Below, piece after piece: positions 4,755-55,130 of a stretch of 64,000 nucleotides of DNA. Each line of letters starts with the position of its first letter. Position 1 is the first letter of the stretch. The translations under genes were made by a program, and so were the position numbers. Under the pieces are notes generated by a model, which did not search any database, was not told the origin of the DNA, and saw only the letters and a program-made list of their open reading frames with translations. The stretch is from Bdellovibrionales bacterium (lineage in GTDB: Bacteria > Bdellovibrionota > Bdellovibrionia > Bdellovibrionales > JAGQZY01), in NCBI GenBank assembly GCA_964230645.1, contig CAXRHT010000001.1:832001-896000 (forward strand), in the 5' to 3' direction.

Positions 4755-5667
4755 TCAATCCTCTTCTTAGTTTGTACTGAAAATTTTCAATCGAGAGGAG
4801 TTTGTCGACATTAGCCTCCATCTCCCCTTTTAACATCTCTAGTTCCTCATAGAAAAACGTGATGGCCTGAGGTTCCTCGGGCATCCAATCCAGTTGAGCG
4901 GGCTCCTTGTAGAGTCTTTTTGAAAGGGCTTGTTTCCAGATGTTTAAACAAAACTCCCTTTTGTCTCGATCGTTGAAAAACCACGGGGCTAACTTTTTCC
5001 AGTCCCCTCCCTGCTCGTAGAGAAGATCATAGAGAAACTTGAGGCTAGCGTTAAGGTGATTGACGTTTTCCTCCTCTTTCAAATCAAGGGCCATCTCAAG
5101 ACGCCCATCTGACCACAAAAGAGGAAGCTTTCCGAACTCGTCGTAAGACTTTAAGTCTTCTTCACTGAGTTTATTAAAATGAAAAATATGAGACCGAGAA
5201 CGAATGGTTGGAAGCAGTCTTCTCAACTGGTCCGTGATTAAAATAAAATAGGTGTTAGGAGGAGGCTCTTCGAGAACTTTAAGTAGTGCGTTCGATGCCC
5301 CTGGCGACATTTGGTCGGCCGGATCGATGATTACAAAACGACCCTTATGCAAAGATTTTAATGAGAACGAGGCTTGCATTTCTCTGACCTGATCCACGCT
5401 GATCATGGTTTTTTTTTCAAGTTCCACATGATAGACGAGCTCGTTTTTCTCTTCGAAAATACGTTGGCAATTGGAGCACTCGCCACAAGCCTTATCAGAT
5501 TTTGTACAGTTGATGACCTGTAAGAGTGCATGGGCCAATGTTTTCTTGCCCACCCCGGCTGGTCCTTGGAAAATCATGGCCGAGGGAAGCTGCTCGGATT
5601 TTAGCAACTCGAAAAGAGTTTTCTTCTGATTGTCGTGTCCAACGATTTGATCAATCAATCCAGCCAT
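4735..5667 (-). CDS. holB: DNA polymerase III subunit delta'
   Basis: GPAGVGK, CxxC zinc module (ACGECSNC), NALLKVLEEPP and TIRSR; tmk-holB-tatD order. Confidence 0.92.
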   Translation of the reverse strand: MAGLIDQIVGHDNQKKTLFELLKSEQLPSAMIFQGPAGVGKKTLAHALLQVINCTKSDKACGECSNCQRIFEEKNELVYHVELEKKTMISVDQVREMQASFSLKSLHKGRFVIIDPADQMSPGASNALLKVLEEPPPNTYFILITDQLRRLLPTIRSRSHIFHFNKLSEEDLKSYDEFGKLPLLWSDGRLEMALDLKEEENVNHLNASLKFLYDLLYEQGGDWKKLAPWFFNDRDKREFCLNIWKQALSKRLYKEPAQLDWMPEEPQAITFFYEELEMLKGEMEANVDKLLSIENFQYKLRRGLNERAVQ

Positions 5668-6290
5668 TGTCTTCTCTTAAACTCCTCTAAGGTTTGCTCA
5701 TGCAGTGATTCAGGCGTGTCCGTGCCATCAAGCACCAACCAACGCTGCGGGTTTTTCTTGGCCTGATAAAGATAGCCCTCTCGCACTTTTTGCTGGAACT
5801 GCTGATTTTCTTTTTCCATACGATCTTGATCCACACCGGTTTCCTGGGATCTTTTGCCTTTTCTTTTTTGACTCTCGTCCACACTGATATCAAGGAAAAC
5901 AAAAAGATCAGGTTCGCAGTCATGGGCCACAAATCGGTTGAGATTTTCCACATCTTCTAACTTCAAAGAACGTGCGAAAGCTTGAAAGGCCACTGTACTT
6001 GAGTAAAACCGATCACATAAAATCCATTGATTGTCTTTGAGAGCTGGCTGAATTCTTTTTTCCACCATTTGCACGCGCGCGGCCTGGTAGAGCAAAATCT
6101 CAGCTCTTGGAACAGGGGCTTCTATGTCCGTGGCAAGGATCAAGTCTCTTAATTTTTCTCCAAGCTCGGTGGCCCCTGGGTCCCTTAACAAAAGTGATTT
6201 CAGGCTCTTGGAATCAAGGGAGGACTTTACTTTTTCTATCAGAGTGGATTTACCGCTGGCATCGAGGCCTTCAAAAACAACAAAAGACAT
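5655..6290 (-). CDS. tmk: Thymidylate kinase
   Basis: FEGLDASGKST P-loop, CDRF and DRME motifs. Confidence 0.96.
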   Translation of the reverse strand: MSFVVFEGLDASGKSTLIEKVKSSLDSKSLKSLLLRDPGATELGEKLRDLILATDIEAPVPRAEILLYQAARVQMVEKRIQPALKDNQWILCDRFYSSTVAFQAFARSLKLEDVENLNRFVAHDCEPDLFVFLDISVDESQKRKGKRSQETGVDQDRMEKENQQFQQKVREGYLYQAKKNPQRWLVLDGTDTPESLHEQTLEEFKRRQWLD

Positions 6291-6403
6291 GCTTTAGGTT
6301 TTGCGCTCCTTGCTCGAAGAGTCACGGAAAAACCCGGCCTTAAACAAAGCGTTAGCCGCAATTGGGCGGCCTGGTGGCTCAGGTCTTCGAACGAAGCTCG
6401 GGG

Positions 6404-6560
6404 CGCCTTCTCGTATTGGAAATGCGAAAGCTCAGAGAGCGTCTCCGACGAGGCCCAGCTCCTGCTTAGCTGGCATCGCCCTTTGGGCGAGCGCGTCCCG
6501 CTTGCCAGAGCCTCGCCGGAGACGCTCTCTGAGCTTTCGCATTTCCAACACGAGAAGGCG
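6404..6560. repeat. Long palindromic hairpin element 1 (51-bp arms, structured 55-nt loop)
   Basis: 6404-6454 is the reverse complement of 6510-6560 with 2 mismatches, both G:T wobbles on the minus strand. The loop contains the sub-stems CCAGCT/AGCTGG and TCGCCC/GGGCGA. It forms a GC-rich patch between divergent tmk and the response regulator. Confidence 0.9.
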
Positions 6561-6607
6561 GTGGATTTGATATTTCTTTAGATAAAATGTTTCATTTTGA
6601 GATTAAC

Positions 6608-6635
6608 TCAATATTTCTAGATACTTCTCCGATAA
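6608..6635 (+). promoter_or_regulatory. Putative sigma28 (FliA/SigD-type) promoter
   Basis: TCAA-N16-TCCGATAA, ending 6 nt before ATG 6642. Confidence 0.55.
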
Positions 6636-6641
6636 AACTCT

Positions 6642-7580
6642 ATGGACCAGCGAAACAATCGAGTTCTTATTGCTGATGGGGATAACAATCTTGCTAATCG
6701 CATGAGTGCGTATCTTAAGGAAAGTGGGTTTGCGCCTAAGGTGATCAGTAATAGTTATCTTTTGCAAAAGACTTTGCTTGAGTGGAGGCCTAAGTTTTTG
6801 TTTATTGATTTGCTGTTTCCTGGGGCCTATGCGCAGCAGATTTTGAAATTTTTAGGTGAGCGTCAAATGCTTGGGGAAGATGGTTGTCATGTGATTGTGA
6901 TGTCTAAGCACAATGCCGAGCTTAATGTGCGCAACTGCTTAGAATCTGGGGCTGAGGATTTTGTTGTTAAGCCTTTTAAAATGATCGATATTCTTGAGCG
7001 GTTGGCCCTTCTCAGTCAGGTGAAGCGTTATAATTTTAATGGATTGACTAATAACAACGAACGGCAGATTAAAAACTATTTTGAGATGATTCGACTTCTT
7101 GTTGAAGCCACCAATCAAGATAAAGACATCAGTCCCATGCGTTTTGAGATTTCAAAGATGATATCCATTGCTTTAAAAGCTGTAAGAACCTCTATTATTG
7201 CGACTAATCACGCTCGTGATGAGATCGAGGTGATTCGCTCAAGTGACGATGAATCTCTCACTAAACTACCGCTGGATCTTAAAAAATATCCGGAAGTGCA
7301 GTATGTGCTCAGAACAGAGAAGTCTCTTTTTATCGAAAGCCTGGAAAAAGATCTGACCATGGCTTTTGTTAAGCATGAGGTCAAAACTATCAATTTTGAC
7401 TCAATGATGGTGCTTCCCTTGATTCAGGGAGGGATTCTGCGGGGCTGTATGTCTATTAGAATGCCTAAGGATTGTAAGAAATTGACTTACTACGATATAA
7501 AAATGGCGGAAATCGCCGCTCAGTTGCTCTCCTCCACCTGGAAGTTTCAAGAAGTTGAGGCTCTAAAAAAAGCTGGATAA
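6642..7580 (+). CDS. Response regulator, REC + GAF-like domain
   Basis: N-terminal REC (VLIADGD, FIDLLFP with the phospho-Asp, VMSK, FVVKPF). C-terminal GAF-like region (LKKYPEV, SMMVLPL, GCMSIR). No DNA-binding or enzymatic output domain seen. Confidence 0.8.
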   Translation: MDQRNNRVLIADGDNNLANRMSAYLKESGFAPKVISNSYLLQKTLLEWRPKFLFIDLLFPGAYAQQILKFLGERQMLGEDGCHVIVMSKHNAELNVRNCLESGAEDFVVKPFKMIDILERLALLSQVKRYNFNGLTNNNERQIKNYFEMIRLLVEATNQDKDISPMRFEISKMISIALKAVRTSIIATNHARDEIEVIRSSDDESLTKLPLDLKKYPEVQYVLRTEKSLFIESLEKDLTMAFVKHEVKTINFDSMMVLPLIQGGILRGCMSIRMPKDCKKLTYYDIKMAEIAAQLLSSTWKFQEVEALKKAG

Positions 7581-23306: not shown

Positions 23307-24080
23307 ATGTGGGCACTTTTTCTCATTTTAAACATTATTAATCCGGCATGGGCTTTTCCTAAAAATATTGAAGTCGTAGAAAACGTTGTTATTGGTCGTG
23401 AGATCAGTGTTCCTGGAGACCGCTTATGTCACGATGGCGTCCATATTTATTTCCGCTCACAAGAAGACTGCCAAAAAACCAATATTGAGCATAGCTGTCG
23501 GAGCCAATTCATCGCACCTATCAGGCAAGCCGAAGTGATCTCCATTGATGAGAACAAAAAGATTTATCGATTTTTCGATGTGCCGAAAAGTTACGAAGTG
23601 AGAACCTATAACCCTGACGAGCGCGGTTATTTTGATCTCGTAGCACGGCAGACCCACTCCATTCCTTTTTGCTCAGGTGCTGAGCCCCGCGAACCAGTGA
23701 TCGTCTTTGAGCAAAGAGAAGGAACTCCAGAGGAACTGCCTTTTCTACAGAGACTTTTCAACTTTGGTGTGACTGTCATCAATACGGGCTTTGGGCCATT
23801 AAAAAGTCTTCATATGTTAAATCAAGAGAGTCACGAACTGGATTTTATCGACTATCGCTATCACACCAATATTCGTAGTCCTCTTTGTGTCGACGACCCC
23901 ATTCATGAAAATTTGATCCAACAAATTTCCGGAGAGTACAGTGGCGGAGGCGTTCGCTTTTTCAATATCAATCTACTTCAAAATATCTCTGGAGAGATCA
24001 TTCTCCCTACAAATCAAGATGTTTTAGAAACAAATCCTGAAGACTACCTTCTCGATTGCCTACCCTCGGTGAGCCTATGA
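23307..24080 (+). CDS. Secreted protein; N-terminal domain similar to the 22668 protein
   Basis: Signal peptide (PAWA); VPGDRLCHDGVHIYFR aligns with VPANKVCQQGGYLYHK. Confidence 0.75.
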   Translation: MWALFLILNIINPAWAFPKNIEVVENVVIGREISVPGDRLCHDGVHIYFRSQEDCQKTNIEHSCRSQFIAPIRQAEVISIDENKKIYRFFDVPKSYEVRTYNPDERGYFDLVARQTHSIPFCSGAEPREPVIVFEQREGTPEELPFLQRLFNFGVTVINTGFGPLKSLHMLNQESHELDFIDYRYHTNIRSPLCVDDPIHENLIQQISGEYSGGGVRFFNINLLQNISGEIILPTNQDVLETNPEDYLLDCLPSVSL

Positions 24081-24889
24081 TAGACACTCAACGGGCAGGT
24101 AAAAAAATATGTGAAAACTCAGCTTTTGACTCTGTGGTTGAACATCTAAAGTTTGTCATTTCGACCTATCTGGAAGAAAAACCTCATATGAGCCTTGGAG
24201 CCATTAGCAAAAAATGCTCTGTTAGCGAGCCCACTTTGCGCAGGATCATGAAGGGACAAATAAAAACTTTCCCAACAGTCACAACAGTGCTCGACATACT
24301 CACTTATGTAACCAATGAAAAGAAAACCTCAAAAATAATCTCTCTCTACCCAGGCCCCATCGCAGATTTTCTCAAAGAGATGGCCCCTTACGTGGAAGAC
24401 ACTCAAACCGATTACAGTGTTGAAATTAACCAAGAACTCAAACAACCCGTTAAATATTTAATTTACAAACTGGCTTCAAACTCAGCGGGTGTGACCAGAC
24501 AAAAAGTCAGCGACCTTTTCGGTGCCCACGGTTTAAAAAGTTTGGATTCACTCCAAGATAAGGCTTATATCGAAGAACGCGCCGGTAAGTACTTTAGTAC
24601 CTCAAAAAGCTTCACTTCCAGTCACGAAAACTTTGTGGAAAATTTCAAAACAGTCTCAGAGTTTCTAAAACCCGACAAACTCTCCCCAAGAAGCCGCCTC
24701 AATCCCCTCTTCAGAAACTTCTCAAACTCAGTCTCCCCGGAAGCCTTCGAAGAAATCCTAAAACTCCAAAAAAAGACCATGGCCCGTATAGCCCAAATCA
24801 TGACCAACGAAGAAAACCAAGGCGAAATCCCCCTCTTCCTACTACTAGCCATAGACACCCTAGACACAAAACCCCCCTCAGAATTCTAA
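24077..24889 (+). CDS. HTH protein, TIGR02147/DUF4423-like
   Basis: N-terminal HTH (SLGAISKKCSVSEPTLRRIMKG), central winged-helix-like segment, C-terminal SVSPEAFEEI. ATGA overlap with the upstream gene. Confidence 0.6.
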   Translation: MIDTQRAGKKICENSAFDSVVEHLKFVISTYLEEKPHMSLGAISKKCSVSEPTLRRIMKGQIKTFPTVTTVLDILTYVTNEKKTSKIISLYPGPIADFLKEMAPYVEDTQTDYSVEINQELKQPVKYLIYKLASNSAGVTRQKVSDLFGAHGLKSLDSLQDKAYIEERAGKYFSTSKSFTSSHENFVENFKTVSEFLKPDKLSPRSRLNPLFRNFSNSVSPEAFEEILKLQKKTMARIAQIMTNEENQGEIPLFLLLAIDTLDTKPPSEF

Positions 24890-24921: not shown

Positions 24922-25085
24922 CCATTGCCTGGCTTGCGAGAGCCGAGGGGCTTGTCCCAAAGGCTCGAGCCGCGAGCGTTGCGTATCTTGGGTTGCGCCC
25001 AGAAGTGGGGCAATCCCGGAGACGAAATGCACCCGTCGGCATGCCTTGGGGACAAGCCCCTCGGCTCTCGCAAGCCAGGCAATGG
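24922..25085. repeat. Long palindromic hairpin element 2 (43-bp arms, 78-nt loop)
   Basis: 24922-24964 is the reverse complement of 25043-25085 with 1 mismatch. GC-rich, between convergent genes. The arm core resembles hairpin 1. Confidence 0.9.
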
Positions 25086-36420: not shown

Positions 36421-36782
36421 CTGTCATCCTTAGGCTACACTGTCATTCTGAGGCTACACTGTCATTCTGAGGCTACACTGTCATTCTGAGCGAAGCGAAG
36501 AATCTGCCCGGTGTCTTTTCTCCGCTCAAGATCCTTCGGCTACGCCTCAGGATGACAATGCAAGAGAAGACACCACTCATTCACGTTTTGTCATTCTGAG
36601 CCTACGCTGTCATTCAGATCCTACACTGTCACTCTGAGCCCACACTGTCACTCTGAGCCCACACTGTCATTCTGAGCGAAGCGAAGAATCTGCCCGGTGT
36701 CTTTTCTCCGCACAAGATCCTTCGGCTACGCCTCAGGATGACAGTGTAGACTCAGGATGACAGTGCAGCCTCAGGATGACAA
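36421..36782. repeat. REP-like cluster: two ~81-bp cores plus nine 19-bp satellite units
   Basis: Cores TGTCATTCTGAGCGAAGCGAAGAATCT...AGATCCTTCGGCTACGCCTCAGGATGACA at 36478-36558 and 36664-36744; tandem CTGTCATTCTGAGGCTACA-type units. Confidence 0.92.
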
Positions 36783-54913: not shown

Positions 54914-55130
54914 ATGCCGCCCTGAACTCCATTGGTCGCCCTGAACTCCAAATGTCGTCCTGTACTCCAAATGTCGTCCTGAGCGTAGCGAAGGACCTTT
55001 ACCGAGGACTGTGATTGATAACGCGAACTCAGTGGAGATAGATTCTTCGCTACGCTCAGAATGACAGTGTGTTCATTCAGAGTAACAATGCGTACGCCCA
55101 GAAAGACAATGCGTACGCGAAGAATGACTA
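54914..55130. repeat. REP-like element with 19-bp (left) and 21-bp (right) tandem satellites
   Basis: Core TGTCGTCCTGAGCGTAGCGAAGGACCT...AGATTCTTCGCTACGCTCAGAATGACA (54971-55067); same family as the 36.4 kb cluster, opposite orientation. Confidence 0.88.

Follow-up and report, generated by a model that had tools for sequence, protein, structure and literature searches.

Small hairpin repeats in the genome of a predatory-type bacterium of the Bdellovibrionales are followed, on one side and on one strand, by genes whose silent sites are enriched in G and T. Two copies lie in the window, the 64,000-nucleotide stretch of DNA analysed here (Table 1), and the observation is real and general beyond the copy at which it was made: behind 43 copies, 72% of third codon positions are G/T when read on the element's strand. 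None of three comparisons shows a rise in silent divergence in the affected zone, and the repeat probably leads the cell to retain one of its two DNA strands while the other is corrected or replaced. We found neither the element family nor its polar recoding of one strand described in the literature searched (titles and abstract openings), and no account of any repeat-anchored polar skew.

The gene to the right of the family B hairpin (REC gene) carries the bias from which the analysis started. In codons 8–68 (6663–6845) the last letter is T in 32, G in 23, C in 4 and A in 2 codons; our recount thus reproduced exactly the 55 of 61 G/T-ending codons of the original prediction, and codon positions 1 and 2 are unremarkable. 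As also predicted, the bias fades further into the gene (61/82 for codons 69–150, then 97/162 for codons 151–312) and is lacking in tmk, where 7–14 of every 20 codons end in G/T. The value of 55/61 has a binomial p = 1e-9 even against the leading-strand mean of 0.54. Among 3226 genes delimited with a hexamer gene caller, 61-codon windows contain on average 33.1 G/T endings on the leading and 30.5 on the lagging strand, and 55 is the highest value, common to three genes. Because the GC skew of the + strand of contig C1 is negative at the window, we read the REC gene as a lagging-strand gene, and the second-ranked gene on that strand reaches 49/61. Across contigs C1–C3 the + strands seem to keep one sign of GC skew over about 2.9 Mb, the switches lying near C2:200 kb and C3:100 kb. 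The name REC-GAF, given beforehand, holds for its first half: the receiver domain lies above the Pfam cut-off (E 1.5e-10), the GAF match is weak and below it (E 0.0015), and a PDB search with the C-terminal domain gave no meaningful match.

Table 1. Features of the window discussed in the text (positions of the 64,000-nucleotide stretch).
Feature	Position	Strand	Remarks
tmk (thymidylate kinase)	5655..6290	-	Upstream side of family B hairpin; no skew
G-rich left boundary (GAAG.CTCGGGG-like)	6393..6403	+	Unpaired
Left arm of long stem	6404..6454	+	Sequence copy-specific
Family B conserved loop	6455..6509	-	Nested helices, compensatory changes; minus strand folds better
Right arm	6510..6560	+	96% complementary to left arm; differs from the sister taxon's sequence there
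Polar zone, family B copy	6561..7580	+	Plus-strand silent sites G/T-enriched, fading with distance
REC(-GAF) host gene	6642..7580	+	312 aa; vertically conserved, divergent from tmk
Host gene in the zone of the family A copy	24077..24889	+	5/61 codons near the 3′ end G/T-ending
Family A copy, second element of the window	24922..25085	-	78-nt loop 24965–25042, 43-bp arms
TGTC-type REP cluster	36421..36782	.	Unrelated repeat class, negative control; no skew

The hairpin beside the REC gene (51-bp arms, 55-nt loop, folding z = -10.8) matched ten further copies when used as a query, in the loop part only. A genome scan yielded 104 hairpins with arms of at least 22 bp, and profile searches sorted those with conserved loops into families A (n = 28), B (n = 11), C (n = 4) and D (n = 9) and one singleton. 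Together they form a repeat superfamily with one plan, a conserved multi-hairpin loop within a 30–60-bp stem whose sequence differs per copy, in a non-coding element of roughly 160 bp. Arm conservation is partial near the loop, and the distal arm of family A is close to random between copies; pairing is nevertheless kept, with 22–27 of 27 family A copies paired at each position from -46 to -12. Mean left-arm identity is 0.33–0.40 in families A–C versus 0.80 in family D, whose copies adjoin TGTC-type REPs and, judged by their arms, appear to be young. Positions -3 and -2 before the stem are G in 86% of copies in this genome, and the G-rich left boundary was not seen in other genomes. Loops of the B, C and D type form nested helices in which 95.6% of cells are paired (44 sequences) and 11 of 14 pairs have two-sided changes (slid controls, 34–49%), figures to be read with the structure having been derived from the same alignment and with relatedness inflating the shuffle test. 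Rfam shows no known structured RNA family matching A or B: the family B loop has no match at E ≤ 1 and family A a single chance match (E 5.1). The zone of the second element in the window extends toward lower coordinates, and the gene lying in it has, near its 3′ end, G/T at 56/61 third positions when read on the element's strand.

Several irregular copies were recorded. A family A copy at C1:641009-641092 lies in frame inside an open reading frame and has a downstream skew of 0.67. Loops of different families contain an extra hairpin of about 40 nt (C3:486936, C1:142854, C1:733457, C3:591773, L235 and L295), possibly a nested mini-element. At L042, L047, L012 and L211, arm ends or entire units of loop and arm are duplicated in tandem, mostly on the downstream side, which hints at repeated re-synthesis or slippage there. 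Between orthologous copies (L260 and L266; window 6367-6587 and X6-X9), loop-proximal mismatches are shared and the distal sequence of both arms is replaced wholesale. At shared intergenic sites (L206/L207 in genomes G008 and G002; L037/C3:675747; L012), the element family, arm sequence or orientation differs between genomes, which suggests that such sites are used repeatedly. Two singleton hairpins with other conserved-looking loops, C3:702274 and C3:715930, have downstream G/T fractions of 0.61 and 0.45, and one of them also stands upstream of the REC orthologue in G004.

The original prediction tied the bias to the hairpin, held it to be polar and proposed collecting all such hairpins, orienting them and plotting the skew against distance. 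With loops oriented alike and third positions scored 55–450 nt downstream on the element strand, the G/T fraction was 3168/4402 = 0.72 for the 43 copies of families A–C and 0.505 ± 0.061, at most 0.714, in 1865 control windows beside other intergenic regions. The polar skew thus recurs across the genome: 33 of the 42 copies that could be tested lie above the 99th percentile of the control, and G/T is higher downstream than upstream at 37 of 39. The excess decays exponentially, with a constant of 553 ± 46 nt and an amplitude of 0.36. It is the same for copies on the leading (0.723, 24 copies) and lagging strand (0.718, 18 copies), and element orientation is itself unbiased (25/43 leading, p = 0.36). 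Downstream genes are sense in 22 and antisense in 21 cases, and both are skewed. The predicted enrichment of C>T and A>G on one strand is borne out, both transitions shifting alike (odds ratios 2.6–4.6 in antisense and 1.7–3.6 in sense genes) with no clear effect of neighbouring bases. Non-coding DNA downstream is shifted too (0.60 vs 0.50), and amino acid use follows: in sense genes G, V, F, C and W are up and P, T, K, N, Q and H down, and in antisense genes the reverse. A weak leak of the same sign is seen upstream (0.539 vs 0.497, p = 0.002). In the reverse scan, 22 of the 29 strongest G/T patches of the genome, including all of the top 15, lie behind a correctly oriented copy of families A–C. 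Family D copies, with few sites, show no downstream skew, and a few copies have none or have a skew of opposite sign upstream. Two such copies, C2:1820782 and C3:726658, combine weak downstream skew with strong opposite-sign upstream skew (0.25 and 0.30), as if an element of the other orientation had formerly been there.

Relatives provide comparisons between sites with and without the element. In 19 REC orthologues with tmk-type sequence upstream and without this hairpin (one has a different small hairpin), 26–38 of 61 codons end in G/T, compared with 55/61 where the hairpin is present; orthologues free of it do not share the bias, the outcome on which the original prediction had staked itself. 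Relative to the same-genus majority, the changes in codons 8–68 of the window gene run in one direction: C>T at 8/11 sites and A>G at 4/6, against 0/13 for T>C and 0/3 for G>A. In a genus of another family (g35), one copy stands before the same peptidase-like gene in 6 of 14 genomes and is absent in 8; within the first 750 nt of this gene, 148–177 of about 220 codons end in G/T with the copy and 103–131 without it (p = 0.0007, which overstates the contrast because the genomes are related). Such patchy presence at orthologous sites (19 REC orthologues without; g35, 6 with and 8 without) is what a mobile element would leave. In a further genus (g4), the fraction is 0.63–0.65 downstream versus 0.45–0.50 upstream.

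The loop was found with a covariance model in 39 of 151 genomes of the order, and 29 of the best 30 loci have long stems on either side of it. When species genomes, some of them overlapping genomes counted elsewhere, were scanned with a pattern, at least 119 stretches matched, of which 80 were examined: 49 came from records labelled other than Bdellovibrionales and had neither stems nor skew (0.49), and those labelled Bdellovibrionales had 0.55–0.82 downstream. The skew is not universal among carriers of the repeat. Copies in G075 (0.503, 14 of 42 copies), G139 (0.505, 7 of 8) and G011 (near 0.5) lack it, and other carriers have downstream G/T fractions of 0.536 (G142, 15 of 20 copies), 0.58 (G007, 6 of 6) and 0.648 (G092, 3 of 4). 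Arm similarity, a rough proxy of age, appears to fit the division in part: it is 0.78, 0.65 and 0.56 in unskewed family D, G011 and G142 and 0.41–0.44 in skewed families A and B, but the values of unskewed G075 (0.50) and G139 (0.47) do not suit a reading by age.

The zone is not hypermutable: silent divergence is equal or lower there in three comparisons, each a weak test, and none shows a rise. At the one locus compared with a sister taxon, represented by contigs from vent metagenomes, the neighbouring genes differ by about 10% (105/1016 and 106/992), and the REC gene has 7 differences in its first 359 nt versus 40 in 464 nt further on (p = 3e-5), a divergence ratio of about 0.3–0.4 for the zone. 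The five differences in codons 8–68 all have G/T in the window and A/C in the sister taxon, whose count is 51/61. The hairpin arm region does not align between the two, and tmk, too, has few differences at its 5′ end (6/234). In g35, the total rate of exchange between G/T and A/C in the zone was estimated at 0.84–1.18 of that in the rest of the gene, with wide intervals (5–95%, about 0.4–2.0), pairs that share history and values of 0.62–1.12 for pairs without the element; extra forward mutation alone would give 1.4–1.9, a lowered back-rate 0.76–0.80 and redistribution 1.0. Singleton changes from G/T to A/C make up 23/95 in the zone versus 34/82 outside it (p = 0.016), and those from A/C to G/T 6/27 versus 17/48. 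At one g4 locus, divergence is 0.19–0.21 in the zone versus 0.22–0.32.

Folding predictions set the two strands of the element apart. In 42 of the 43 copies the better fold is that of the bottom strand, the partner of the G/T-rich one, by a mean of 6.4 kcal/mol with DNA parameters. Of the 28 family A copies, 26 have a GNA triloop as their inner loop on this strand; GNA triloops are stable in DNA. Over 108 stems, top-strand mismatches are C.A in 70 versus G.T in 21 cases, with 67 pyrimidine against 17 purine pairs; on the bottom strand the mismatches are therefore mostly the tolerated G.T or purine–purine. The folded strand is accordingly modelled as the A/C-rich one, and with the bottom strand folded the zone would lie 5′ of the structure on that strand.

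We tentatively explain these observations, at rather less than even confidence, by a break of the folded strand at the repeat, after which this strand would be corrected or re-made from its partner and silent sites would shift to G/T. The stem of about 50 bp would extrude and the loop fold as single-stranded DNA; the folded, A/C-rich strand would be nicked or gapped there repeatedly, leaving a free 3′ end on the side of the zone. Nick-directed mismatch repair, or 3′→5′ resection and refilling, would then resolve G:T and G:U mispairs to match the base on the unbroken strand, so that on the kept strand C>T and A>G would go up and T>C and G>A down with the total rate about unchanged. The stem arms might stay complementary through template switching or repair inside the hairpin. 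Polarity, decay, action on both gene orientations, equal replichores, dependence on the repeat, the better-folding strand and unraised divergence are observed; the break, its maker and the repair route are what we infer. The weak same-sign leak upstream fits repair that runs both ways from a nick. The genome encodes MutS and a MutL with the endonuclease motif DQHA(X)2E(X)4E, and a search for MutH gave no match; in bacteria without MutH, the strand to be repaired is believed to be distinguished by nicks and by the clamp (PMC8744996). HUH enzymes cut a folded strand, leaving a 5′ phosphotyrosine and a free 3′-OH, and TnpA-REP, directed by a hairpin, cuts the folded strand in vitro at sites >400 nt away (PMC3333891); an HUH-type cut would therefore give the geometry that a broken folded strand needs. 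The explanation has a cost, as a several-fold cut in the back-rate requires an event in most cell cycles. Absence of MutL as the cause of unskewed genomes was ruled out, MutL being present in 5 of 5 tested; MutL thus does not explain the difference between skewed and unskewed genomes.

An alternative close to the original prediction, which we think unlikely though it deserves weight, makes the folded bottom strand the template: a primer or nick at the repeat would start top-strand synthesis that fades over 0.5–1 kb, with G/T arising from wobble errors of a Pol I-type polymerase or from deamination of the displaced old top strand. The geometry fits, with the zone 5′ of the structure on the folded strand, and priming on folded-strand DNA as at a single-strand origin or primosome assembly site would be compatible with it. 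Sign and scale resemble error-prone Pol I extending a ColE1 primer, for which the portion of PMC3167613 at hand counts on the new strand 32 A>G against 9 T>C changes and 140 C>T against 29 G>A, falling off exponentially across 1.3 kb or more. Such synthesis predicts a higher total rate than the 0.84–1.18 (g35) and about 0.3–0.4 (sister taxon) observed, and does not predict a same-sign upstream leak. These rates, together with the upstream leak and the like shift of the two transitions, make us prefer the reading in which the partner of a broken strand is kept. Deamination alone should favour C>T over A>G, and here both shift alike. Of the original prediction, a polar effect on one strand is thus supported, and extra mutagenesis is not, silent divergence being unraised. 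Plain deamination of single-stranded DNA, which it invoked, gains no support from equal shifts lacking a clear context or from a folded strand that is A/C-rich, and a sequence-specific deaminase was set aside for want of a clear context effect.

Selection, in which the repeat would work best beside DNA or RNA that pairs poorly with itself (helicase or Rho loading, extrusion), seems improbable to us. It would lower divergence as well, and the effect is stronger where a gene ends at the repeat (antisense 2.6–4.6 vs sense 1.7–3.6), but it would need hundreds of selected sites at each of 43 unrelated intergenic sites with either gene direction; it also faces the shift of non-coding DNA (0.60 vs 0.50), amino acid use pushed in both orientations and many-copy genomes without skew. 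Fork stalling, named in the original prediction, is not supported in its lagging-strand form, the skew of both replichores being equal (0.723 vs 0.718). This equality also makes a replication-coupled gap like that at the RRS of Escherichia coli, where a structure blocks the polymerase and a single-stranded gap remains, quite improbable: the hairpin is stable and RRS gaps reach a similar size, up to 2 kb, but RRS need the lagging-strand template (both in the available text of PMC11194060). In such a gap the exposed strand would moreover be the folded one, giving the opposite sign unless gap filling makes errors. At about the same low level, or a shade below it, we place the reading of the repeat as a promoter or non-coding RNA, the top strand being exposed by its transcription or by an R-loop. 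Damage to the non-template strand has the sign seen here, and on the top strand a UNCG tetraloop can be read in some family B loops; against this, the decay is no different in sense genes, into which transcription would continue, family A loops are in triloop register, the element holds no promoter-like site (one ordinary site precedes the REC gene) and Rfam gave no match. That the bias of the REC gene is chance, the gene's own codon preference or the result of inversion from the leading strand has next to no credibility. Nothing was found in its support: synteny with tmk is kept at orthologous loci with 26–38/61, leading and lagging strands differ merely by 0.54 vs 0.50, and 22 of the 29 strongest patches lie behind a correctly oriented copy; the anchored skew, the orthologues, the patch scan and presence or absence in g35 refute it.

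A trans-acting HUH or GIY-YIG enzyme, as originally proposed, found no support in this genome or its relatives. Genes beside all 53 copies include no nuclease or transposase recognisable by eye, and between opposed copies in relatives there are ordinary host genes or none. No stand-alone GIY-YIG gene was found in the genome, the sole match being a 635-aa UvrC-type frame, and at 0 of 30 Y1 loci examined, of many more, is the Y1 gene flanked by these loops. Y1 genes occur in 33/39 genomes with and 84/112 without the loop (p = 0.27, no association). G092 is skewed (0.65) with no PF01797 match, and G075 (14 matches) and G139 (10) are unskewed (0.50) with them, so the skew does not track Y1/RAYT presence. 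Searches with the family A and B patterns gave 0 matches in viral contigs, and the family A pattern 0 in metagenome contigs. A likeness of the loop to RAYT-type repeats was set aside, as ACGCGT is palindromic and the likeness appears by eye in both orientations.

Other repeats of the genome behave differently. TGTC-type REPs, in two variants (43 and 94 matches genome-wide), have G/T fractions of 0.48–0.50, and a cognate enzyme for them was not found; their clusters in the window, at 36421-36782 and 54972-55071, contain tandem half-copies. RAYT-type GGTACC repeats have a weak outward G/T skew of 0.56–0.58 (solo copies 841/1454 = 0.578). About 37 non-coding GGTACC copies carry this weak skew, and one pair explains a strong patch at C1:681993. 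The two RAYT/TIRYT-like Y1 genes (C2:1838144-1838794 and C2:1598732-1599394) are flanked by GGTACC repeats.

A non-coding element of about 160 bp, present in dozens of copies per genome, would set the direction of silent and some amino acid change in the gene behind it. Local codon bias would have a new source in it, and tests of selection and phylogenies based on affected genes would be distorted. With a fixed start, a known strand and a 550-nt decay, it would make the origin of keto strand skew testable at a defined site, and likewise the means of strand discrimination in bacteria that lack MutH; complete g35 genomes, with their single conserved copy, would offer a simple target if the strains can be cultured. 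Should it prove portable, the element might serve as a natural means to steer the mutation spectrum. More speculatively, and we consider this rather doubtful, the repeats might be a widespread class of small mobile DNA structures serving as fixed strand-discrimination marks that tell repair which strand to trust, one-sidedly over about a kilobase. Neighbouring genes, essential ones included, would then be recoded to G/T without a raised mutation rate by a cis-acting, programmable local bias in mismatch resolution.

Among known systems, the elements resemble REP, BIME, REPIN and TIR repeats as dispersed intergenic palindromes, often in opposed pairs, of which one strand folds (available parts of PMC3733652 and PMC3333891), but here the loop is conserved and the stem variable, the reverse of REPs, and the conserved palindrome with a GTAG or CGTC tag is lacking (PMC3733652, in the same parts). 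Nor is there a cognate Y1 gene flanked by the repeat, the genome's two being flanked by GGTACC, and those parts of PMC3733652 and PMC3333891 mention no flanking skew. As regards MITEs or non-autonomous IS, the inverted arms are not conserved between copies, and empty orthologous sites have diverged beyond the point at which a target-site duplication would be legible. GRINS share correlated GC and TA skew, strongest at third positions, with effects on amino acid use; in the sections of PMC8256042 at hand their mechanism is unknown, and they are duplicated coding regions of >500 bp (>80% identity) spread by gene conversion, with abrupt sign changes. Here, in contrast, the skewed DNA consists of single-copy, unrelated host genes beside a short non-coding anchor, the skew has one sign and decays smoothly, and no long direct repeat covers the REC gene within the window. 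RRS, too, are structured elements whose action, reaching up to 2 kb, is confined to a single side and strand, but they are two fixed G-quadruplex copies on the lagging template only (accessible text of PMC11194060), and here dozens of lineage-specific copies are active in both orientations (0.723 vs 0.718). The ColE1 Pol I footprint likewise combines a one-strand excess of C>T and A>G with exponential decay from a fixed point, in an engineered plasmid-origin mutator with a raised rate (PMC3167613, in the portion cited above). The present element is chromosomal and natural, and divergence beside it is unraised. A one-strand G+T excess from asymmetric replication or repair also underlies the leading/lagging keto skew and the heavy-strand gradient of vertebrate mtDNA. 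Compared with the chromosome-wide keto skew, the skew described here is local (0.5–1 kb), about nine times larger (0.36 vs 0.04) and independent of the replichore.
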